Source: a virus
Lineage: Duplodnaviria; Caudoviricetes
IMG/VR virus record: IMGVR_UViG_3300013281_000008
Coordinates: 19,143-83,142 of that record
Length of the DNA: 64,000 bases
Reading direction: 5' to 3' (one strand)
The notes below the pieces were generated by a model. It worked only from the letters and a program-made list of their open reading frames with translations, did not search any database and was not told the DNA's origin. The position numbers were made by a program, and so were the translations under genes. Positions 412 to 33,707 of this stretch are shown here, in pieces (position 1 is the stretch's first letter; each line of letters opens with the position of its first letter).

Positions 412-1138
412 CTTTCTTCTTATCCAATTCTTCTTTAACTTCTTTGATTGCTTCGTCTAATTCCGCCACACGACTGTTACGTTGAGAAGGTGTACCATGC
501 CAAGATAATTCCCAAAACACGCCATAAAGAATGTGGAAAAGGGAATAATGAACTTCATCATATTCTAGTAGAACTTTACCCGGAGTTACTTCCACTTTAT
601 GGTGTTCTTCATCGTAAACCGTTCCCTTTTGACCGAGCTTTAAGGGTAAATTAATCAATTCGTTAGCCGGAGTCAATGAAATGGCATAACCGCCTTTGGT
701 TCCTTCTTTGATAAATTCATCAGCAAGCCAAGTTCCCCAGCCATGAAACTGAGGAAAGAGACCTCCAGAAAGAATTCTAGGAACTTCTAAGAACTTATCT
801 TCCTTTTCACTGAACTCTTGGGTAATTCGAAGATCCCAATATAGTTCTAGATGATCAATCTCGGAAGCTTTCTTCTCCGTTGGAACATGAAGACCTTCGT
901 GAACAAGCTCATTGAATCCTCTCGGCATAATAAGAGAAAGGAAAGCTTCGTGTTTTTCTGCCAGAAGAAACAAATCTCGTAGGATTACATCATTATCAAG
1001 ATAACAGTTACTAGTGAGAAGCTTGGAAAGCTTAGACGTTTTATTCTCAGTGTAGAATTCACCAGCTTCAGAATTCCAGACGGTCATCATTATTTCACCA
1101 CCTTTGGTTATCTTGATATCTCCATCACCCAAGTTCAC
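404..1138 (-). CDS. hypothetical protein
   Basis: 244-aa ORF; GTG start overlaps the stop of mini-gene 1 (GTGA); SD AAGGAG is supplied by the mini-gene 3' cap. Confidence 0.75.
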   Translation of the reverse strand: MNLGDGDIKITKGGEIMMTVWNSEAGEFYTENKTSKLSKLLTSNCYLDNDVILRDLFLLAEKHEAFLSLIMPRGFNELVHEGLHVPTEKKASEIDHLELYWDLRITQEFSEKEDKFLEVPRILSGGLFPQFHGWGTWLADEFIKEGTKGGYAISLTPANELINLPLKLGQKGTVYDEEHHKVEVTPGKVLLEYDEVHYSLFHILYGVFWELSWHGTPSQRNSRVAELDEAIKEVKEELDKKKDD

Positions 1139-1254
1139 TTATTACTCTCCTTCAAATCCTCAGTAAGCTGATTCCCAAGCTGACTCATAAGCTGACTCTC
1201 AAGCTGACTCCTAAGCTGACCCTTCAACTCTTCACCTAGGAAATCAGAGTTCAT
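1135..1254 (-). CDS. QLxS tetrapeptide-repeat mini-gene, copy 1 (39 aa; not in the ORF track)
   Basis: Hand translation: MNSDFLGEELKGQLRSQLESQLMSQLGNQLTEDLKESNK*; overlaps the helicase stop and the next GTG. Confidence 0.75.
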   Translation of the reverse strand: MNSDFLGEELKGQLRSQLESQLMSQLGNQLTEDLKESNK

Positions 1255-2725
1255 ATTCTCTAACTTCTCCCGCAAAATGATCTTTGTATATCATAACACG
1301 TTTTCTAAGATGTTGTCCAAGAAATCTAGTATTTAGGAAATCAAAATCATAAATATAAGCCTTTTCCTTACCCGGATATAGTCTTACTGCGCGGCCTACA
1401 GATTGGACGAGCTTAATCTCCGACTTTCCGCCTCCTCCAATAATCAAGTGCTTTGTGGAGCGTATGTCTATACCTTCCCCGATGACAGTCGTGCCTATAA
1501 GTATATTATACTTCAATTCATTAAACCCGTCAATGGCCTCTTTAATGGCTTCTTTCTTATCATCTCCAGAAATATATTTGTTAGCATAACCCATATCAGT
1601 AAGCCAATCACTGATAAGATTACCAGCTTTATCTTTTCTGTCAACTAAAATAAGTATTTGTTCTCCCATTGGAATTGTTTTTACAATATCGGCTATTGTG
1701 TTTAAAAGCACCATGCCGCCGCAATAATTTAAATCATACTCTCTTTGATAATTTGGATGGGCTCTACCTGGAACTTTACAAATAATGTATTCTGTTGGAG
1801 TTATAAAACCGTCTTCAACTGCTTTTTTTGGAGGATACTCATATATTACATTTGATATAAAGCCATGTAACTCTAAAATTCTGGAATCATTTCTTAAAAA
1901 GGTCCCACTAAAGCCATACTTGTAGTATATATTATTAAAATCTTTGGCCAATTCAGTTGCTGTAAAAGCTCCCCAATGGTGGATTTCGTCCGCAATAACC
2001 ATATCTACATCGCTAATAAGTTTATCTAAATGACCCTTTTTTTGAAGGGATACCAAAGTCTGAATGTTTACAATTCTTATTGGGGGTAACTTGTTCTTAG
2101 TCTTTAAACCGGCTGTCCTAACCATTTTAACTTTTGGTCCAAATGCCAAAAACAATTCATCGTAAATCTGCTGTAAAAGGGCTAAAGAAGGCACTATAAC
2201 CAACGTATTCACTTCTTTTTGCTTTATAAGCTCAACAATACACCTGGTCTTACCAGATGCCACGGAAGCTGATATAACTCCCTTGGAATACTTATCAGTT
2301 TGCTCTAGAATTTCCTCTTGGTAATAGCGTAAAGCAGGAGGCTTATTACGCCATTTTAGTGTCAAGTAAGGGTTGGGCCTCACCCTAGTGTTGATCTCTT
2401 CATATAAGTCAAATTTGTGCGTTTTAAGGGTATTCTTAACACGGTATAACAACCCGGCCATGAAAGTATTGTTTTCGTTGAGTAAACAGACTACATCTTG
2501 GGGTAGTTCCGATAGCCTTTTTTTCAAAGCAAAGAAATACTTATGGTTCTTATACCGCTTAGCCCTCTCCATTTCGGAGTATATACGCTTACGTTCAAAC
2601 TGGGTTTCTTCATTCCTATAGGATAAATCCTTGGAAATGGCATCCATGATGTCTTTTGGGAACCCCTTAAGTTCACAAAAGGAATTGCCGATAATTATCT
2701 TGGCTTTAGTTGAAGGTTGGATCAT
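1244..2725 (-). CDS. Superfamily 2 DNA helicase (UvsW/XPB/type III Res-like)
   Basis: Walker A ASVASGKT, DEIHH, SGT, GEGIDI and QSVGRAVR motifs. Confidence 0.92.
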   Translation of the reverse strand: MIQPSTKAKIIIGNSFCELKGFPKDIMDAISKDLSYRNEETQFERKRIYSEMERAKRYKNHKYFFALKKRLSELPQDVVCLLNENNTFMAGLLYRVKNTLKTHKFDLYEEINTRVRPNPYLTLKWRNKPPALRYYQEEILEQTDKYSKGVISASVASGKTRCIVELIKQKEVNTLVIVPSLALLQQIYDELFLAFGPKVKMVRTAGLKTKNKLPPIRIVNIQTLVSLQKKGHLDKLISDVDMVIADEIHHWGAFTATELAKDFNNIYYKYGFSGTFLRNDSRILELHGFISNVIYEYPPKKAVEDGFITPTEYIICKVPGRAHPNYQREYDLNYCGGMVLLNTIADIVKTIPMGEQILILVDRKDKAGNLISDWLTDMGYANKYISGDDKKEAIKEAIDGFNELKYNILIGTTVIGEGIDIRSTKHLIIGGGGKSEIKLVQSVGRAVRLYPGKEKAYIYDFDFLNTRFLGQHLRKRVMIYKDHFAGEVREYEL

Positions 2726-3167
2726 CGCCTTTAGGTTTCTTAGGGAAAGGAACTAACTGACCTTTTGGTTTATTATCTTCAATAAGCTGATCTAAATCGT
2801 TCAAAAAGGATTCAGGCTCCATTTGAACAACGCCTTGGATTAGCTCAAAGTATTCTTCTTTAGCTTGCTCCCCATACAGGATCTCTCCGGTTTTATGGCT
2901 ATGGTGGAAATAAGAGCCAACTAGGAAGTCTGGGAACTGTTTACGCACAGTATCGATAAACTCCATAACTTCAATTCCTTTGGAAAGGAATGAACAACTA
3001 ACCACAACTCTATCTTCTTGAGCTTCTATGATAAAATCTACGCCACCCAAAGGAGGAGTTTTAATACAAATAGCGTAATGAGGGTTTTCTTTGGCTTCTG
3101 ACTGGTCTTCAACCATCAAAAGATTATCTGGAACGAATTCTTTTAGTTCTTTAAGAATTGTTTCCAT
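2706..3167 (-). CDS. hypothetical protein (start probably ATG 3167 rather than 3224)
   Basis: ORF track 2706..3224; the first 19 codons run into the repeat-rich non-coding tract. Confidence 0.65.
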   Translation of the reverse strand: METILKELKEFVPDNLLMVEDQSEAKENPHYAICIKTPPLGGVDFIIEAQEDRVVVSCSFLSKGIEVMEFIDTVRKQFPDFLVGSYFHHSHKTGEILYGEQAKEEYFELIQGVVQMEPESFLNDLDQLIEDNKPKGQLVPFPKKPKGDDPTFN

Positions 3168-22510: not shown

Positions 22511-22752
22511 TGTCTCAGCTTAAATCCATGATTGAGTCTATTCTTATAACCGAAATTAAGCGGTTATACGAAATGGCAGCAACTCCGACCGGACTTACTA
22601 ATGAAGAGACTAAGAAATTAGAAACGTTCTGTAAGATTCTTCATATTTTCGATGATCTTCACGACACGCCTAAAAAGTCTAAGCCAATACAAGCGTCAAT
22701 GGAAGAACTAATACGTTTAGCTAAGACGCCTACGGATAAAGATGTCAAATAA
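22510..22752 (+). CDS. Possible terminase small subunit
   Basis: Position directly before terL; helical; ends in SMEELIRLAK. Confidence 0.45.
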   Translation: MSQLKSMIESILITEIKRLYEMAATPTGLTNEETKKLETFCKILHIFDDLHDTPKKSKPIQASMEELIRLAKTPTDKDVK

Positions 22753-24265
22753 TGATGACATTGTATATCTTCAGCCGGAAGATAATGATGGGCAACCTGA
22801 AACGCCCATTCAATTAACTCCAGAAGGGGCTAGGGCTTATCTTTGGACAACTGGAAGCTTAGATTGGAAGCTTTATGATTCCCAAAAAGAGATATATAAC
22901 GTTTGGCGTGATTATACAGGGCAGAAGTTTATCCTTAACTGTTCAAGGCGTTTTGGCAAATCATTCATGTTGTGTTTAATCGCAATTGAATATGCACTTA
23001 AACACCCTAAAAGTCGTATTTGCTACGCAGCCCCCACGGCAAAGATGGTTAAGAAGATTATTGCTCCGATCTTCAAGGATATTCTTGAGGATTGTCCTAG
23101 AGAACTAAGACCGGTTTGGAAAGCTCAGGATCAAATCTACCTTTTTCATAACCAATCAGAAATCCATATAGCAGGTACTGACGCTGAACGCGCCGAAGCG
23201 CTTCGAGGTCAGTCTATGCATCTTGGTATTGTAGATGAAGCTGGGTTTATGAGCCAAATGGACTACGTGGTGTCTGACATTCTTATGCCCCAGACACTTA
23301 CAACGGATGGTAAAATCATTATCGCTTCCACTCCACCTAAAACACCGGCTCACGACTTCACCCAGTATGCCATTGACGCCGCCATACGTGGAAATTATAT
23401 CAAACGGACCATTTATGACAATCATACCTTGTCAAAAACACGTATAATTCGAACCATGATGGAAACTCAGCCTTCTTTAACTAAAGAACAGGCTGAAGAA
23501 TACTATATGCAACGCTCTGGGCCTAAAAACTCCACCTGGCTCAGAGAATATATGGCTGAATTTGTCACAGATGAAGCCTATTCTGTCATACCAGAGTTTA
23601 CTGAAGAATGGTCTAAGGAATTAGTCCAAGAATGTAATAAACCCCCATTTTTCGACTGTTATGTCAGTATGGACGTCGGATATAATGATTTTACCGCCGT
23701 TTTGTTTGGATATTGGGACTTTTTCGAAGCTAAGCTTATTATCGAAGACGAAATAGTCATGAATCGCATGACTTCTGCAACTTTAGCTAACGAAATTAAG
23801 AATAAAGAGCTATTCCTATGGAATGGTAAGAAACCATACGTTAGAGTCTCCGATACTGATCTAATTGTGCTCTCAGATCTCCAACGAACCCATGGAGTTA
23901 ATTTCGTCCCAACCCCCAAGGACAATAAAGAAGCGGCCATCAACAAAGTTCGTATGATGATTGCCGATAAGAAGATATTAATTAATCCACGATGTAAGAA
24001 TCTTATTAATCATCTTAAATTTGCAGTTTGGAATAAGCAAAAAACCCAGTTCGAACGGTCTGGAGACTATGGTCACTTTGACCTTGTGGATGCCCTTGTT
24101 TATATGGTGCGGAATATACAAACTAATAGAAATCCTGTCCCCCCTGGACATGGTTTAAATATAGCTACTCAGTTTGTTCCACCCCAAACCAAGAAATCTT
24201 ACTCAGAAATCCAGATGGGTAAGCTTTTAAATTTAAAGAAGTATTTCAAAGACTGGAATAAATAA
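22742..24265 (+). CDS. terL: Terminase large subunit
   Basis: SRRFGKS Walker A, LRGQSMHLGIVDEAG Walker B, ASTP coupling motif, MDVGYND and HFDLVDAL nuclease aspartates. Confidence 0.93.
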   Translation: MSNNDDIVYLQPEDNDGQPETPIQLTPEGARAYLWTTGSLDWKLYDSQKEIYNVWRDYTGQKFILNCSRRFGKSFMLCLIAIEYALKHPKSRICYAAPTAKMVKKIIAPIFKDILEDCPRELRPVWKAQDQIYLFHNQSEIHIAGTDAERAEALRGQSMHLGIVDEAGFMSQMDYVVSDILMPQTLTTDGKIIIASTPPKTPAHDFTQYAIDAAIRGNYIKRTIYDNHTLSKTRIIRTMMETQPSLTKEQAEEYYMQRSGPKNSTWLREYMAEFVTDEAYSVIPEFTEEWSKELVQECNKPPFFDCYVSMDVGYNDFTAVLFGYWDFFEAKLIIEDEIVMNRMTSATLANEIKNKELFLWNGKKPYVRVSDTDLIVLSDLQRTHGVNFVPTPKDNKEAAINKVRMMIADKKILINPRCKNLINHLKFAVWNKQKTQFERSGDYGHFDLVDALVYMVRNIQTNRNPVPPGHGLNIATQFVPPQTKKSYSEIQMGKLLNLKKYFKDWNK

Positions 24266-24289: not shown

Positions 24290-26320
24290 ATGTCATCAAA
24301 AGATACCTATTTCGCAGCTCTTCCGTCCGATGAGATCGGTCCAGAATTAATGCGAAAAGTCAATGATTGGTACACCCACATATCTGCTTCTGGCATATTT
24401 GGCCGGATGAAAAAGTCCTATTATTCTTATTATGGCTACAGCGATACCACTGGTGGTACTTCTGCCGATATTCTTAAAGGTGGCTCCCAAGGTGAATTAG
24501 CTTTAATGAAGGTTAATCACTTCCGCAACCTCATACAGCACATTCTCGTAATGACTACCAGTAATAGACCTGCCATGGAAGCCAGAGCGATTAACACAGA
24601 CCATCGGTCAATGGCTCAAACTATTCTGGCTAATGGTATTCTTGATTATTATATGCGCGAAAAGACGCTTGAAGAGTACCTCAAACAATCTGCTGAATTT
24701 GCTCTAGTATTTGGTGAAGGTTACGTAACTCTTGAATGGGATGCCTCTCAAGGTGATGAATATGCCGCCGATCCAGACACTGGTAGAATCATCCACAGCG
24801 GAGATCTTCGATTTAATGCATTAAATCCAATTGATGTTGTTAAAGATGTTTATGAATCTGAAGTGGATAATCCTAACTGGCGTATTGTACGGAAGTTCCT
24901 TAATAAATATGATTTAGCTGCTAAATATCCTGAGCTATCTGAAAAGATTATTTCAGCGCCTTCTAAATATGATGCTGAAAAAAGCATGATGTTTGAATTT
25001 ACTAATCCTTATAAGGAAAATAGCGACCTCGTTGCTGTTTATGAATTCTATCATCGAAGATCAGATTCACTTCCTTCTGGACGCTTGGTATCCTTCATCG
25101 ACGACGAGGTAGTACTTTATGATGGACCTCTCCCTTACAAGAATGTGCCTATTTATCGCATTGCGCCTGGTAATTTCATTGGCACTGTTTATGGGTATTC
25201 TCCTGCTTTTGACCTCCTAGGTCTTCAAGAAGCTGTAGACGCCCTCTATTCCGTTATTGTAACGAATCAGACTACATTTGGTGTCCAAAACATTCTTATT
25301 CCTTCTGGACACAATATTGCTGTTAGTCAACTTGCTGGCGGTATGAATGTTATCGAATATGATAGCCAGCTTGGTAAACCAGAAGCCCTTAACCTAACGG
25401 CTACTCCTCCCGAAATCTTTAATTTTATTGATAAGATCGAACGAACGATGGAAACTATCTCCGGTGTTAATCAAGTCGCTAGAGGTGATCCGGCTGCCAA
25501 TCTTCGTTCTGGTAACGCGTTGGCGCTTATTCAATCGATGGCCATCCAATTCAATAGTGGGCTTCAGAATTCGTATGCTCGCTTAATTGAAAATATTGGT
25601 ACTGGAATTATCAATACACTTAAAGAGTTCGCAGAAGCTCCGCGTATTATTATGATCACTGGTCGGCATAATATGTCTTATGCTAAGGAATTTAAAGGAT
25701 CTGATCTAGATAAGATCAATCGTGTTATTGTCGATATCGCAAACCCACTTAGTCGTACAATGGCGGGTAAGGTTGAAATCGCAGATAACCTACTTAAGAT
25801 GGGTCTGGTTAATCCTCAGCAATATATCAACCTAATTAAGACCGGAAATCTAGATGTAATGCTCGAAGGACAAGAATCTGAATTGATGCTTGTCAAACAA
25901 GAAAATGAAGAGCTTTCCGAAGGAAGAGATGTAATAGCAGTCGTCACAGATGCTCACGCTCTTCATATCCAAGAACATAAGTCAGTTTTGGCCTCTCCAG
26001 ATGTTCGCAAAGACCCCACGATAGTCCAGGCAGCTATCAAACATATCGAAGAACATATTGAACTTCTCCGTTCTACCGATCCTGGACTTCTCGCAGTACT
26101 GGGGCAGCAAGCAATACCTCCTGTCGGGCAACAGCCTGGGGCACCTGCCGAAGGCGGGCTACCACCAGGCGGAGAGTCACCTCTCGCTGGAGCAGGCCAA
26201 ACTATTCCAGAAACGTTAGAAGCACAAATGCAACCCGGTGAAGAAATGCCTTCGTTACCAAGTCCAGCTACTAATCCACTCAGTGGAAATAAGTGGAATC
26301 CCGAGACAGGCGGTTTATAA
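24290..26320 (+). CDS. Portal protein (P22/T7-like head-tail connector)
   Basis: 676 aa after terL; LGLQEAVDALYS...TN, ETISGVNQVARG motifs; Pro/Gly-rich tail. Confidence 0.85.
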   Translation: MSSKDTYFAALPSDEIGPELMRKVNDWYTHISASGIFGRMKKSYYSYYGYSDTTGGTSADILKGGSQGELALMKVNHFRNLIQHILVMTTSNRPAMEARAINTDHRSMAQTILANGILDYYMREKTLEEYLKQSAEFALVFGEGYVTLEWDASQGDEYAADPDTGRIIHSGDLRFNALNPIDVVKDVYESEVDNPNWRIVRKFLNKYDLAAKYPELSEKIISAPSKYDAEKSMMFEFTNPYKENSDLVAVYEFYHRRSDSLPSGRLVSFIDDEVVLYDGPLPYKNVPIYRIAPGNFIGTVYGYSPAFDLLGLQEAVDALYSVIVTNQTTFGVQNILIPSGHNIAVSQLAGGMNVIEYDSQLGKPEALNLTATPPEIFNFIDKIERTMETISGVNQVARGDPAANLRSGNALALIQSMAIQFNSGLQNSYARLIENIGTGIINTLKEFAEAPRIIMITGRHNMSYAKEFKGSDLDKINRVIVDIANPLSRTMAGKVEIADNLLKMGLVNPQQYINLIKTGNLDVMLEGQESELMLVKQENEELSEGRDVIAVVTDAHALHIQEHKSVLASPDVRKDPTIVQAAIKHIEEHIELLRSTDPGLLAVLGQQAIPPVGQQPGAPAEGGLPPGGESPLAGAGQTIPETLEAQMQPGEEMPSLPSPATNPLSGNKWNPETGGL

Positions 26321-28862: not shown

Positions 28863-29819
28863 ATGTCAGACACTCAAACCCCCGCTCCACAGGAATCTGT
28901 TGGAGAAATTGCAAATCAACAAGCCAATGAAGGTTCTATTACAGAAGCCGTTTCCGAGGCGACAACCCCGGCGCAGAACGCTGTTTCCCAACTTCAAGAA
29001 AGTGGAGTTGATGTAAAAGAATCTGCAAACTCAACGCCTGAAAATAAGAAATACAAAGTTAAGATCGATGGTAAAGAAGTAGAAGTTACGGAAGATGAAC
29101 TTCTAAAGGGTTACCAAAGTTCTAAATCGGCAAGCAAACGCTTCAATGAAGCTGCTAAAATGCGTAAAGAAGCCGATCAGCTTATTGAGTTTATGAAGAC
29201 TCAACCTGTTCAAGTTATTGAACAACTTGGTCATAATTTCCGAGAAATCGCTGAACAATACTTAATTCAAAAGCTTGAAGAAGAAAGCATGGACCCTAAA
29301 GATCGCGAACTTCTAGATGCTAAGCGTAAGCTTCAAGAATATGAAGAACGAGAAAAACAACTTGCCCAACAACGTGAACAAGAAGAATACGCTAAAATGA
29401 AGTCTTCTTATGAAGAGCAAATTGATACTCAAATCTCTGATACTCTTCAAAAATCAGGCCTCCCCAAGACTCCCTACACAGTTAAAAGAATGGCTCAATA
29501 TCTTTCTCGTGCTCTTGAGAATAACCTAGAACTCGCACCAAACGATGTAGTTGAACTTGTTAGAAAAGACTACTACAACGATCTTACATCTTATCTTGGT
29601 GGATATGATGGAGATAAACTCCTGGAAGTAATGCCTAAAGACGTGGTTGAAAAGATCCGTAAGGCTGAACTAGCCAAGGTTAAAGCTAAAACTGCTCCTA
29701 CTCCTACGAAAGTAGAAGAAGTGGCTAAGCCTAAATCTGAAGATGCTGATAAGAAAAATAAGAAGAAAATGAGCATGGCTTCTTTTCGTGAATGGGCAGA
29801 TAAAGCGTCAAGAGAGTAG
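28863..29819 (+). CDS. Capsid scaffolding protein
   Basis: Acidic disordered N-terminus, KYKVKIDGKEVEVTEDELLKGYQ motif, coiled coil; lies before the capsid gene. Confidence 0.85.
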   Translation: MSDTQTPAPQESVGEIANQQANEGSITEAVSEATTPAQNAVSQLQESGVDVKESANSTPENKKYKVKIDGKEVEVTEDELLKGYQSSKSASKRFNEAAKMRKEADQLIEFMKTQPVQVIEQLGHNFREIAEQYLIQKLEEESMDPKDRELLDAKRKLQEYEEREKQLAQQREQEEYAKMKSSYEEQIDTQISDTLQKSGLPKTPYTVKRMAQYLSRALENNLELAPNDVVELVRKDYYNDLTSYLGGYDGDKLLEVMPKDVVEKIRKAELAKVKAKTAPTPTKVEEVAKPKSEDADKKNKKKMSMASFREWADKASRE

Positions 29820-29827
29820 TATTAAGA

Positions 29828-29857
29828 GGGGACAGATTAGTCTGTCCCCATTTTTTT
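29828..29857 (+). terminator. Rho-independent terminator
   Basis: GGGGACAGA-TTAG-TCTGTCCCC followed by a T7 run. Confidence 0.85.
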
Positions 29858-29859
29858 AT

Positions 29860-30428
29860 ATGAAACCATATGGAATTATCTATAAAGTTACTAATAAATC
29901 CAATGGAAAGGTCTACATCGGGCAGACTGTTCAAGGTCTGAAACAACGTAAAAACAAACATATTTATACTTCTAAACGACAGATAACAAATTTGCATTAC
30001 ATCATGCTATAAATAAATATGGAAAAGAAAGCTTTGATTTTGAGACTATTTGTTCTTGCTTTGACATTGATGAGCTAAATAAACAAGAACAACATTTTAT
30101 CGAACAATACAAATGTATCGCACCCAATGGCTATAACTTGAAAAATGGTGGCTATAATAAAAAGTATAGTGAAACGACCATTCGTAAAATGAAAGAAATA
30201 GCGAGTAAACGAGGCCCTAATCATCCATCGACTTTAGCTCTTTTAGATAGAAGTAAAAACTATCAAAAACAAAAAGGTTGTATTGGTAATGTTAGACGTT
30301 TTATTCAAGCCGAAGATGGGACGATTTATACAGGTGTTACTGAATTAGCTAAAAAGCTCGACACAACGGCTTCTTCAATACATAATTCTATTAAAAAAAG
30401 AGGCAAATATATTTGCCTATTATTTTAA
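29860..30428 (+). pseudogene. GIY-YIG homing endonuclease, frameshifted near 29970-29980
   Basis: YGIIYKVTNKSNGKVYIGQT in frame 1 stops at 30012; the domain continues in another frame (ALHHAINKYGKESF...ELNKQEQHFIEQY...GYNLKNGG). Confidence 0.8.
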
Positions 30429-30435
30429 TAAGTAT
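30426..30435 (+). promoter_or_regulatory. Late-promoter-like motif TAATAAGTAT upstream of the capsid leader
   Basis: About 190 nt before the capsid ATG. Confidence 0.6.
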
Positions 30436-30620
30436 ATATGGAAACATAGGTTTAGCTCCAAACGCTAAATCTTTTGAACGTTCAAAAGACTATTCAAAAG
30501 GTATTTAGGGTTAGGACACTAGATAAATGTTCTGTAGGGTTTATCCGTTCTGGACAACTCTAAATAATCATTAAAACTAGTATTTTAACATTTAACCTAA
30601 ATCAAAGGATATACAATAAT

Positions 30621-30776
30621 ATGTCAGGTGCAAATATTGTCAGCACGCTGTCTGGTCTGTTCAAAGAACAGTACAGTGACAAGCTCATGGATCTAGTTCC
30701 AGATGGCGTCAAGATGCTTCGAATGGTTCCATTCGTAGAATCTAGTAAAGAAATCGGTAATTTTTACCATCAGCCT
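30621..30776 (+). CDS. Major capsid protein, exon 1 (52 codons)
   Basis: SD AAGGA; MSGANIVSTLSGLFKEQYSDKLMDLVPDGVKMLRMVPF...GNFYHQP, then an in-frame TAA inside the intron. Confidence 0.85.
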
Positions 30777-31034
30777 TCTGTTTAAGCATAGGGCCCCTTA
30801 TTAGAAATGATAAGGTAAACACTCTTTGAATTGCTGGAAACTCCAAAATAGGGACAATCAGCAGCCAAGCTGTAGAAATACAGAAGGTTCAACGACTAGG
30901 TCATATGACCGTACCGTCAAGCGACGGGAAGTGGAGAGCATCCGAAAGGATGAAGAGATAGTCTAATCTTGCAGGTAACTGCAAGCTGCTCGAAAGAGCG
31001 GACAAGATGTAGCGAATCTTGTTGAATATAAATG
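30777..31034 (+). ncRNA. Group I self-splicing intron (258 nt, no internal ORF)
   Basis: Exon ends in U with a U.G wobble in P1; terminal G; P AATTGCTGGAAA (30829), Q AATCAGCAG (30856), R GTTCAACGACTA (30887), S AAGAGATAGTC (30953); P7 GACTA/TAGTC; IGS AAGCAT pairs with 3' exon GTGCTT; GNRA hairpins. Confidence 0.93.
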
Positions 31035-32168
31035 GTGCTTTTGGCACAAGAACACGGACTCACGTACGCCCCGGCGAACGGAACGGCCTTCTCCCTAGGA
31101 GATGCCATTGCTGCTCGTCTTCAAGATGCTCAAATCGCTGGCGCTCAACTTCTGTTGCGCTCCTCGATCAGCTATGAAGCCGCTGCCCGTGCGTCGAACG
31201 ATAAGAAAGCTTTCGTGAAAGCGACCAGCCTTCTTGTCGAAAACATGCTCAACTCAATCAGCAAGCGATTGGAAATCTCGCTTCTCTACGGACAATCAGG
31301 CCTTGCCTCGTCTGTAGCGACGACTAACCAATCTGCTACTTCTACCCGTCTGGAAGTTCCTGCGGCTTCTTGGGCCCCTGGAATCTGGTCTGGATCGGAA
31401 AACGCTGTTTTGGTTGCGTACAACGGTACAACCCGTCTGAACGCTGCGGATACCGCTGGTTACACGGTTACTTCGGTTGATCTTCTCAACCGATATGTAT
31501 TCGTGTCTGCATCTAGTGCTGATATTACGGCGATTGACGCTGCTTCTGGTAGCATCACGCTGTACTTCCTCAGTTCAGTGGTTGGTTCCGGTGGAGGTCA
31601 AACCTTTAACGAAATGGCCGGTCTTGATAAGATCATTACGAACACTGGCTCGCTCTTCAACATCAACGCTTCTACGTATGCGTTGTGGAAAGGTAACTCC
31701 TACAGCGCCGGATCTGCGTCACTTAGCTTGACAAAGATCTTGAACGCCGTGGCGTTTGCCGTGGAACGTGGTCTTGATGAAGATGTAGTTTGCATGATGT
31801 CTGCAAAGACGTGGGCAAACATTGCTTCTGATCAAGCTGCTCTTCGTATCTATGATCAAAGCTACAAGCCCTCGAAGCTTGAAAACGGTGCTTCTGAGTT
31901 CGTGTTCAACGGACAAAATGGTCGCATCGAAATCCACACTTCAATCTACGTCAAAGAAGGTGAAGCATTCGTGTTTCCTCTTAAGAGACTTAAGAGAATT
32001 GGAGCTATGGATGTTAGCTTTAAAATGCCTGGTCGTAGCCAACAAGAAGACTTCTTCTTGGAGCTATCTAATGCTGCTGGGTACGAGCTCAGATGTTATA
32101 CTGATCAAGCAATCTTCTGTGATTCGCCTGCGAAACTCGTGAAGATTACGAACATCGTTAATAGCTAA
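31035..32168 (+). CDS. Major capsid protein, exon 2 (spliced product 429 aa)
   Basis: Splicing gives ...YHQP|VLLAQEHGLTYA...; HK97-like layout after the scaffold; strong terminator downstream. Confidence 0.85.
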   Translation: MLLAQEHGLTYAPANGTAFSLGDAIAARLQDAQIAGAQLLLRSSISYEAAARASNDKKAFVKATSLLVENMLNSISKRLEISLLYGQSGLASSVATTNQSATSTRLEVPAASWAPGIWSGSENAVLVAYNGTTRLNAADTAGYTVTSVDLLNRYVFVSASSADITAIDAASGSITLYFLSSVVGSGGGQTFNEMAGLDKIITNTGSLFNINASTYALWKGNSYSAGSASLSLTKILNAVAFAVERGLDEDVVCMMSAKTWANIASDQAALRIYDQSYKPSKLENGASEFVFNGQNGRIEIHTSIYVKEGEAFVFPLKRLKRIGAMDVSFKMPGRSQQEDFFLELSNAAGYELRCYTDQAIFCDSPAKLVKITNIVNS

Positions 32169-32197
32169 TCAAAAGGCTACTTTTAGTGGCTTTTATT

Positions 32198-32224
32198 GGG
32201 GGTCCTTTTTGGACCCCCTTTTTT
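32198..32224 (+). terminator. Rho-independent terminator after the capsid gene
   Basis: GGGGGTCC-TTTTT-GGACCCCC followed by a T6 run. Confidence 0.88.
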
Positions 32225-32235
32225 ATTTATTTCAC

Positions 32236-32264
32236 TTGACGGTCTTTAACATAGATGATAATCT
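32236..32264 (+). promoter_or_regulatory. Sigma70-type promoter TTGACG-N17-TAATCT for the endonuclease gene
   Basis: Correct spacing; -10 ends 6 nt before the ATG at 32271. Confidence 0.5.
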
Positions 32265-32270
32265 ATGTGA

Positions 32271-33707
32271 ATGAAAGAATGTTCTAAATGCAAGCAGATT
32301 TTAGCTTTTGAAGAGTTTGCTAAATGTAAAGCCAATAGAGATGGTTATCAATATCAATGTCGAAAGTGTAAGAAACTTGCAGTTGAACAAATTAAACTCC
32401 TTCACGTAGATGGAAATTATAGTGACAATATAAGTAATAAGCAATGTTCTAGATGTCACAATCTTCTTCCTAAAGACGCTTTTACAAAGAATTCATGTCA
32501 GAAAGACGGCCTTCATAATGAATGTAAAGGATGTATGTCATTAAGGGCTAAATTACGTTATTCAAATAACAAGGATAAAATTAAAGCCCAACAGGCTAAT
32601 TATTATAAGAATAATAAACATGTTAAAAATACTTATTGGCAAAAACGAATAAAAACCGATGTACAATTTAAGATAAAAGTGGGATTAAGAAGACGTCTAA
32701 AATTAGCATTAACCAATAATTATAAGAAAGGGATGGTTATAAAGAATCTTGGCTGTAGTGTTGAGGAGTTTAAGTGCTATTTCGAGTCTAAGTTTCAACC
32801 CGGAATGACTTGGAAAGACTTTCTTAAAGGTAAAATACATGTTGACCATATTAAACCATTATCTGCTTTTAATTTGACAGATCCTGAACAAATTAAAGAA
32901 GCTTGTCATTATACTAATTTACAACCTCTTTGGTGTGAAGATAACATTAAAAAGGGTTCGAAGTATATTAATACATTCTATGAAGATGATAATTTAAAAG
33001 TAAATATTATACCCATATCTGTTTTAGTTGGGATGGATAGACATCATTTATCTAAAGAGGTTCAAAAAACGAATAAAAGGCTTGTACAATTCTTTGATTT
33101 TGAATTGGTAGAAAGAGGATTTCAAATAACAAGCTTTGTAAAATCGGCTAGTGGACAAAATAAAAATAAGGTATTTGCTAGAAAATGTGAAATTAAAGAA
33201 GTTTCCCAAGACGATGCTAAAGGCTTTTTAGATAAATATCATATTCTAGGTGGCTCATTAAATTTTAGATTAGCATTGGGTTTATTCCATAAAGATGATT
33301 TAATAGCTTTAGCGACATTTGGAGCACACCATAGGAATCATACTAAGAATGTATTAAGTCGTTTTGTGACTAAAATAGACTGGAATGTAATAGGTGGCTT
33401 GTCGCGACTTTCTAAAGCTGCTTATGATCAATTGGGTGAGATTTATACGTGGATTGATTTACGCATGTCAAATGGGGATAATTGGATTAAAGCCGGTTGG
33501 ATATTCGAAGAAAAGCTGAATCCCGACTATTTTTATTATAATTTCAAAGCCAATAAAGTAATTAAAAAGCAATCTCGACAAAAATCCCTGGTAAACACCC
33601 CAGACCATATGACTGAATTTGAACACGCCAAGCGAGATGGTCTAATCCGTATATTTGATTGTGGTAAGATACGGTTAAAGTTTGACCCCAAAAAAGAATC
33701 TAAATAA
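32271..33707 (+). CDS. Free-standing composite homing endonuclease: CxxC Zn modules + HNH + Hef-like C-terminal domain
   Basis: CSKC..CRKC and CSRC..CKGC; HVDHIKP...HYTNLQPLWCEDNIKKG; FARKCEIKE...FLDKYHILG...SRFVTK...GGLSRL...RIFDCG. Confidence 0.8.
   Translation: MKECSKCKQILAFEEFAKCKANRDGYQYQCRKCKKLAVEQIKLLHVDGNYSDNISNKQCSRCHNLLPKDAFTKNSCQKDGLHNECKGCMSLRAKLRYSNNKDKIKAQQANYYKNNKHVKNTYWQKRIKTDVQFKIKVGLRRRLKLALTNNYKKGMVIKNLGCSVEEFKCYFESKFQPGMTWKDFLKGKIHVDHIKPLSAFNLTDPEQIKEACHYTNLQPLWCEDNIKKGSKYINTFYEDDNLKVNIIPISVLVGMDRHHLSKEVQKTNKRLVQFFDFELVERGFQITSFVKSASGQNKNKVFARKCEIKEVSQDDAKGFLDKYHILGGSLNFRLALGLFHKDDLIALATFGAHHRNHTKNVLSRFVTKIDWNVIGGLSRLSKAAYDQLGEIYTWIDLRMSNGDNWIKAGWIFEEKLNPDYFYYNFKANKVIKKQSRQKSLVNTPDHMTEFEHAKRDGLIRIFDCGKIRLKFDPKKESK

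Follow-up and report, generated by a model that had tools for sequence, protein, structure and literature searches.

In the mycobacteriophage LittleE, splicing of a group I intron in the capsid gene was demonstrated by reverse transcription polymerase chain reaction and N-terminal protein sequencing (PMC3706429), and that paper cites a capsid-gene group I intron in the lactococcal phage Tuc2009. In crAss-like phages of the Delta and Zeta groups the capsid gene is interrupted by group I introns, one to four in number (Yutin et al. 2021, PMC7886860), and jumbo gut phages contain a mean of 18.5 group I introns per genome (PMC12880540). In cyanophage S-PM2 a psbA intron without an open reading frame (ORF) and the adjacent free-standing F-CphI provide an example of collaborative homing, as does mobE of phage Aeh1 (PMC3984707). 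Here we describe the major capsid gene of an uncultured tailed phage (83 kb), found in a window of 64,000 nucleotides (nt) that comprises positions 19143-83142 of the 83,142-bp IMG/VR record IMGVR_UViG_3300013281_000008. The gene is split by 258 nt (30777..31034) which very probably constitute a functional, self-splicing, ORF-less group I intron of the IA type; all window features given below lie on the + strand. None of 50,697 phage records was matched by megablast with 30400-32300, and tblastn gave only one match, a 26%-identical capsid in a Silvanigrella phage; the phage of the window has no cultured close relative. To the capsid-gene group I introns already known, the window intron adds a case from a lineage without cultured members.

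The capsid frame opens at ATG 30621, passes through exon 1 (30621..30776, 52 codons, ...KEIGNFYHQP, ending CAG CCU with U30776 as last base) and closes at TAA 30783-30785, 7 nt beyond the 5′ splice site. In the RNA this UAA sits within the P1 loop, where it would end translation of exon 1 on unspliced transcripts. The next long ORF in the same frame extends from ATG 31032 to 32168 (378 aa). Removal of 30777-31034 joins exon 1 to exon 2 (31035..32168, 377 codons and the stop) and gives an in-frame product of 429 aa, ...GNFYHQP/VLLAQEHGLTY..., with ...EIGNFYHQP from the end of exon 1 and VLLAQEHGLTYA from the start of exon 2. The intron-less homologues P0002 (427 aa, 86% identical) and P0003 (426 aa, 84%) read straight through the junction as an uninterrupted ...ELGRFYHQPVLLAQEHGVTYA... 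(FYHQPVLLAQEHG at the junction), thereby fixing the splice site to the base. The peptide across the predicted splice junction would be ...EIGNFYHQPVLLAQEHG..., and EIGNFYHQPVLLAQEHGLTYAPANGTAFSLGDAIAAR would be a tryptic peptide of the spliced capsid protein. Exon 1 is itself conserved, with 67% identity to residues 1-52 of another intron-less homologue, P0020.

The Rfam covariance model RF00028 (Intron_gpI; gathering score 50 bits) matches 30767-30985 with 94.8 bits and E 3.7e-23, over model positions 1-253 of 253. No other Rfam hit occurs in the window, and RF00028 has no second hit anywhere in the record. The P1 helix (30773..30794) was located from the sequence, from the minimum free energy (MFE) fold and by script; it pairs GCCU/U.UGU, with the splice site after GCCU, to GCA.AGGGC, its 3′ strand being the guide sequence. 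At the 5′ splice site U30776 forms a wobble pair with G30791, flanked by GCC/GGC pairs; the same pair is present in the unconstrained MFE fold and in the homologous intron of locus L006, considered below. The P10 guide AAGCAU (30784..30789) is complementary to GUGCUU at the start of exon 2 (31035-31040), and the last base of the intron is G31034. There is no ORF of 60 aa or more within 30777-31034, and so no intron-encoded homing endonuclease; the ORFs of at least 30 aa that touch the intron are chance frames of 30-63 aa, lying within it or crossing its ends. A preliminary description of this DNA had proposed the stop that exon 1 meets, the U-G pair in P1, the AAGCAU/GUGCUU pairing, the terminal G, the canonical core, the lack of an ORF and the 429-aa spliced product, and our analysis agrees on all of these.

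The unconstrained MFE fold of 30765-31045 has a free energy of -90.9 kcal/mol (z = -4.59; none of 200 shuffled sequences was as good) and yields P1, P2, P3, P4-P6, P7.1, P7.2, P8, P9, P9.1 and P9.2. This fold and the recurrence of the junction in unsplit homologues put the element well beyond chance. The P7 pseudoknot (30894..30963), placed by the Rfam alignment, motifs and fold, is formed by the strands GACUA (30894-30898) and UAGUC (30959-30963); between them lie P7.1 (30899-30910), P7.2 (30914-30927), the 3′ strand of P3 (30933-30938), P8 (30939-30952) and J8/7. The MFE fold then gives P9 (30968-30985), P9.1 (approximately 30986-31001) and P9.2 (31003-31021), together spanning 30968..31022, followed by a single-stranded tail to G31034. 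The presence of both P7.1 and P7.2 assigns the intron to subgroup IA, which is the usual group I type in phages. By blastn, the nearest known phage introns are those of the RNA polymerase beta-subunit gene of the Bacillus phages AR9 and PBS1 (76% identity over 81% of the length).

Relatives were collected as 80 IMG/VR loci and 64 metagenome loci encoding the same capsid family (L numbers). A homologous, ORF-less intron of 248 nt occupies the same site in L006/L014/L088 (IMGVR_UViG_3300048587_000514) and scores 109.6 bits with RF00028; the exact pattern of the window intron 3′ end was matched in IMG/VR by the L006 contig alone. The capsid proteins of L006 and the window are 59% identical. Covariation was assessed with this single homologue by projecting the 82 predicted pairs of the window intron onto the pairwise alignment with L006. 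Fifty pairs are unchanged, 17 show compensatory changes, four are altered on one side yet still paired, three are broken (two of these belong to a spurious exon-exon helix) and eight fall in gaps. The compensatory pairs are located in P2, P3, P6, P7.1, P7.2, P9 and P9.2, both P7.1 and P7.2 hairpins thus being among them. P10 also co-varies with the exon, AAGCAU/GUGCUU in the window being replaced by GAAC/GUUC in L006. The two introns are 80% identical and the flanking exons 65-66%; the higher identity of the intron fits structural constraint, lateral movement, or both.

The interrupted gene follows genes for TerL (22742-24265), portal (24290-26320), both named from phrogs matches, and head scaffolding protein (28863..29819; phrog_3927, E 9e-06), and it is followed by an intrinsic terminator (32198..32228) with an 8-bp G+C-rich stem and a T run. 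A search of the metagenomic protein collection gave 1377 homologues of exon 2. Matches to known capsid proteins are weak (phrog_14242 major head protein, E 3.7e-6; Pfam SU10_MCP, E 7e-4 and below cut-off), and a sequence-profile search of the PDB returned nothing, such that a fold search was needed. Because of this weak sequence evidence the intron-less homologue P0003 was modelled by AlphaFold with its alignment (predicted template modelling score 0.68; predicted local distance difference test (pLDDT) 85-93 in parts of the core). Foldseek matched the model to solved HK97-fold capsids (PhiTE, ICP1/PLE, VP1, HK97 and SU10) with a probability of 1.00. On the strength of this model and the TerL-portal-scaffold-capsid order, the gene is assigned as an HK97-fold major capsid gene.

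The ORF from 31032 corresponds to database entry P0001 (378 aa, 5 members). Its AUG (31032-34) is formed by the final three intron bases, a short way past the P9.2 hairpin; no Shine-Dalgarno sequence was seen in the preceding bases, and the 52 N-terminal residues are present in all full-length homologues. The 378-aa call is therefore an artefact. The preliminary description had reached the same view of this start, as it had of the identity of the gene, and both claims stand. Independent translation of exon 2 from AUG 31032 was also considered and was rejected, since no ribosome-binding site was seen and exon 1 is conserved.

In the mechanism that we propose, the capsid pre-mRNA would fold into the ribozyme and free guanosine would attack the phosphate after U30776, held by the U-G wobble of P1. 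Guide pairing in P10 would align exon 2, G31034 would enter the G-binding site, and ligation of the exons would yield the capsid protein ...YHQP-VLLAQEHG... at its full 429 aa. From unspliced RNA only a 54-residue peptide would be made, with ribosomes halted at UAA 30783-85; since this codon stops unspliced translation, full-length capsid protein would come from spliced RNA only. Catalytic activity in vivo would be expected of an intron with the anatomy, family match, exact junction and covariation found here. The preliminary description had set an intron in the most abundant virion protein, making capsid output depend on splicing, against phage introns that mostly interrupt genes of DNA metabolism. 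The dependence would indeed follow from the anatomy but is not a new principle; the framing was overstated, capsid introns having been documented (PMC3706429, PMC7886860). A regulatory use of this dependence would go beyond what the sequence supports.

The N-terminal part of the capsid gene is an intron hot spot among the relatives. Insertions were placed by demanding that the joined exons restore the conserved protein sequence. Across the clade, codons 14-57 contain at least nine insertion sites, occupied by three intron sequence families and carrying three endonuclease families (LAGLIDADG, GIY-YIG and HNH), with as many as three introns in one gene. Most contigs of the clade nearest the window have 1-3 insertions, all within the first 57 codons; relatives at most 50% identical to P0020 are intron-less, L147 excepted. 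In coding-sequence numbering the first site follows nt 40 (codon 13 + 1 nt; L144) and holds an intron not assigned to a family. The site after nt 42 (after F14) holds family 1 introns with LAGLIDADG in L004, L006, L089, L104 and L142. Family 3 introns with no endonuclease ORF are found after nt 57 (after codon 19; L144) and after nt 138 (after G46; L003, L004, L013 and L097). At nt 145 (codon 48 + 1 nt) GIY-YIG genes are carried by a family 3 intron in L005 and a family 2 intron in L147. Family 2 also occupies the site after nt 150 (after H50), with GIY-YIG in L002 and with no endonuclease in the 218-nt copies of L103 and L125. The site after nt 156 (after P52) is that of the window and L006, with family 1 introns and no endonuclease ORF. 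Family 2 introns with HNH follow nt 158 (codon 52 + 2 nt) in L003, L004, L005, L013, L097, L103, L113, L125, L140 and L152, and a 239-nt family 2 intron with none follows nt 171 (after H57) in L104.

At every mapped insertion U is the last base of the 5′ exon, which can pair with a guide near the intron 5′ end, with a closing U-G wobble, and an early in-frame stop lies at or near the start of all the relatives' introns. The window intron belongs to family 1. The family 2 and family 3 introns of the relatives escaped detection by RF00028, even in narrow searches at E up to 10. Family 2 nevertheless has recognisable P1, P3, P4-P6, P7 (GACUA/UAGUC), P8, J8/7 (AUGCGAUAGUC) and P9-P9.2, with a fold z of -5.44; its boundaries (5′ exon with final U, intron with final G), P1 pairing, R and S core motifs and fold class it as group I. 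Family 3 may be called group I-like from its boundaries and P1 only. Further family 2 introns in the window were considered and rejected, the core motif having no match there and RF00028 finding one intron genome-wide. Even the closest relatives do not agree in occupancy: P0002 and P0003 are uninterrupted, while P0004, 80% identical to the window protein, starts MQPVLL and probably comes from a gene with an intron after nt 150 in place of that of the window.

Crowding of the sites produces micro-exons of 20 nt in L004 (2085-2104), 17 nt in L144 (1516-1532), 13 nt in L005 (2099-2111) and 8 nt in L103 (2474-2481). The 8-nt exon CAACCCGU of L103 (Ga0099848_1001715), also present in L125 and L113, lies between a 218-nt ORF-less and an 874-nt HNH-carrying family 2 intron. 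It must serve both as the P10 partner of the upstream ribozyme and as the P1 strand (CCGU) of the downstream one; its boundaries are backed by alleles with a single intron, L002 (after nt 150) and L140 (after nt 158). In L004 (IMGVR_UViG_3300020596_000265, 660-3056) three introns fall inside the first 53 codons, with LAGLIDADG (702-1652), without an ORF (1749-2084) and with HNH (2105-2996); L003, L013 and L097 have the same layout.

Other features of the relatives' introns deserve mention. Every family 2 copy contains, within its conserved ribozyme core, a -35-like TTGACT. Only in copies with a downstream endonuclease ORF does a loop insert of around 19 nt add TATAAT at 17-nt spacing, completing a perfect sigma-70 promoter sequence inside the ribozyme (L002:2211-2239, L004:2155-2185, L103:2525-2556); the insert is absent from the ORF-less copies in L103 (after nt 150) and L104 (after nt 171). 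Two of the five LAGLIDADG introns after nt 42 (L104:1463 and L142:3188) end in A and not G, no other in-frame joining leaving U as the last base of the 5′ exon; they may have an unusual 3′ splice site or else be non-splicing copies. Clearly homologous GIY-YIG ORFs, both starting MKNYKVYLI..., occur in two ribozyme families, 5′ of the core in L005 (1335-1889; family 3, nt 145) and 3′ of the core in L002 (2372-2938; family 2, nt 150), which suggests that movement of the endonuclease gene is not tied to that of the intron.

The window capsid gene is flanked by two free-standing homing endonuclease genes, each in an AT-rich island. Upstream is a GIY-YIG remnant (29788..30428) broken into ORFs 29788-30012 and 30138-30428 in different frames, with matches to Pfam (E 2.5e-4, below the curated cut-off) and to the homing endonuclease groups phrog_20015 (E 2e-10) and phrog_314 (E 9e-8). 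Downstream is an intact gene of the HNH / endonuclease VII type (32271..33707, 478 aa), matching phrog_3339 homing endonuclease (E 3e-39), phrog_559 HNH (E 2.5e-31) and phrog_1035 endonuclease VII (E 1e-23). The GC content is 29-34% in the GIY-YIG island, 28-33% in the HNH island and 47-54% in capsid exon 2. L003-L006, L013 and L097 have homologues of the GIY-YIG gene just downstream of their capsid genes, and in more than ten relatives, intron-less ones included, the slot that follows the capsid gene is taken by homologues of 32271-33707. The ORF-less window intron thus adjoins free-standing endonuclease genes, and similar genes also flank capsid genes that have no intron.

Some observations weigh against an active intron. 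The case for splicing is built from DNA sequence; the exon side of P1 contributes only four pairs, and its intron-side extension contains one C-U mismatch; the in-frame AUG 31032 could, on sequence grounds, give a truncated 378-aa product; and the P0003 model has pLDDT below 50 around the junction, so that the role of the N-terminal 52 residues cannot be read from it. The insertion could in principle be a decayed relic that does not splice, the capsid then being made as pieces of 52 and 378 aa or from AUG 31032 as 378 aa only. That AUG falls exactly at the intron 3′ end and is the start chosen by gene callers for P0001 and its members, and non-splicing insertions are known in phage genes, the nrdA gene of Aeh1 being split by mobE on the account in PMC7344957. 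We consider a decayed relic very improbable: the core scores 45 bits over the Rfam cut-off with every helix intact, the 17 compensatory changes relative to L006 show that the RNA structure has been under selection, the ORF of exon 1 is intact and its sequence conserved in every relative, no ribosome-binding site was seen ahead of 31032, and the relatives' exons of 8-20 nt make sense only if they are spliced.

As to its origin, the splicing-competent intron that we favour is most likely a homing relic or passenger. It shares its family with the LAGLIDADG intron that lies 114 nt upstream in relatives (90% identity in the P3-P7 core with the L004 intron after nt 42), it has no endonuclease of its own, and its site region is crowded. 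More tentatively, and in our judgement with the smaller chance of being right, the intron may be kept as a shield. Splitting ...CAUCAGCCU/GUGCUU... would destroy the presumed targets of the GIY-YIG and HNH enzymes encoded by relatives' introns 6 nt upstream and 2 nt downstream, perhaps also those of the adjacent free-standing endonucleases; the allele would be immune to cleavage in co-infection and could spread by collaborative homing, which is established for ORF-less introns with free-standing endonucleases in other phages (PMC3984707). The relatives' sites after nt 150 and nt 158 do hold endonuclease-bearing introns, and an intact HNH-type gene lies directly downstream of the window capsid gene with the broken GIY-YIG gene directly upstream. 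In loci with DNA the site after nt 156 is never co-occupied with nt 150 or 158, and the pairs nt 150 + 158, 138 + 158 and 145 + 158 do co-occur; this mutual exclusion, however, rests on two independent intron copies with DNA, which is a small number. The patchy distribution, with no intron in the closest relatives P0002 and P0003 and seemingly one after nt 150 in P0004, also speaks for a shield. Against it, the cleavage targets of the endonucleases concerned are presumed, and HNH homologues also follow the capsid gene in many relatives that lack introns, so that the association is not specific to the intron. Were the intron nonetheless a shield, it would be an immunity allele rather than a decaying relic, and codons 14-57 would be an arena of competition between mobile introns across the clade of phages with genomes of about 84 kb.

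One consequence concerns annotation. The window capsid gene is mis-called as 378 aa, and among the 120 best-matching protein clusters of the capsid family around one third (37) are likewise N-terminally truncated, with starts that coincide with intron sites and cluster at reference residues 50-57 or else on the first Met past the nt 158 site. They include P0004, P0009-P0013, P0018-P0021, P0034-P0037 and P0040-P0055, among others; the starts of P0037, P0040 and P0053 hint at further intron sites. As this artefact is systematic in public collections, capsid phylogenies and protein clusterings of the group inherit truncated sequences. The relatives also form a compact natural system for studying the sharing of one conserved 130-nt target by several mobile introns and endonucleases, and the handling of 8-20 nt exons by two neighbouring ribozymes. 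That essential, highly expressed structural genes of phages tolerate self-splicing introns is a principle already established.

Comparison with described systems places the window intron as follows. As with psbA and F-CphI of S-PM2, an ORF-less intron adjoins free-standing homing endonuclease genes; unlike that system, one of the two neighbours in the window is broken, and what links them to the intron site is adjacency. The introns of T4 td, nrdB and nrdD, Twort orf142 and AR9/PBS1 have the ribozyme architecture of the window intron, the hairpins P7.1 and P7.2 included, with GUUCAACGACUA and AAGAGAUAGUC as R and S core elements. Those IA introns of T4, Twort, AR9 and PBS1 sit in nucleotide-metabolism, polymerase or unknown genes, whereas that of the window sits in a capsid gene; Twort orf142 has three introns in one gene, as does L004. 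The likeness to LittleE is closer in position, the intron interrupting the virion gene that a tailed phage expresses most highly, with a 5′ exon ending in U and an intron ending in G. In both cases the junction was deduced from intron-less relatives, splicing in the window being predicted from sequence. The LittleE intron differs in its length of 819 bp and its homing endonuclease gene, compared with 258 nt and no ORF here, and the host phage and capsid family are different. The Delta- and Zeta-group crAss-like phages are, like the window and its relatives (with three introns at most), metagenomic phages in which capsid introns cause gene-call artefacts. They are of an unrelated lineage, the present clade coming from metagenomes of sludge, sediment and freshwater, with genomes of about 84 kb and an SU10-like HK97-fold capsid. 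The insertions of the window clade are, moreover, packed into codons 14-57 with micro-exons down to 8 nt, unlike those of crAss-like phages. This density of sites and the 8-nt exon lie at the extreme end of the phage descriptions that we found, and they extend a known pattern without adding a new principle.

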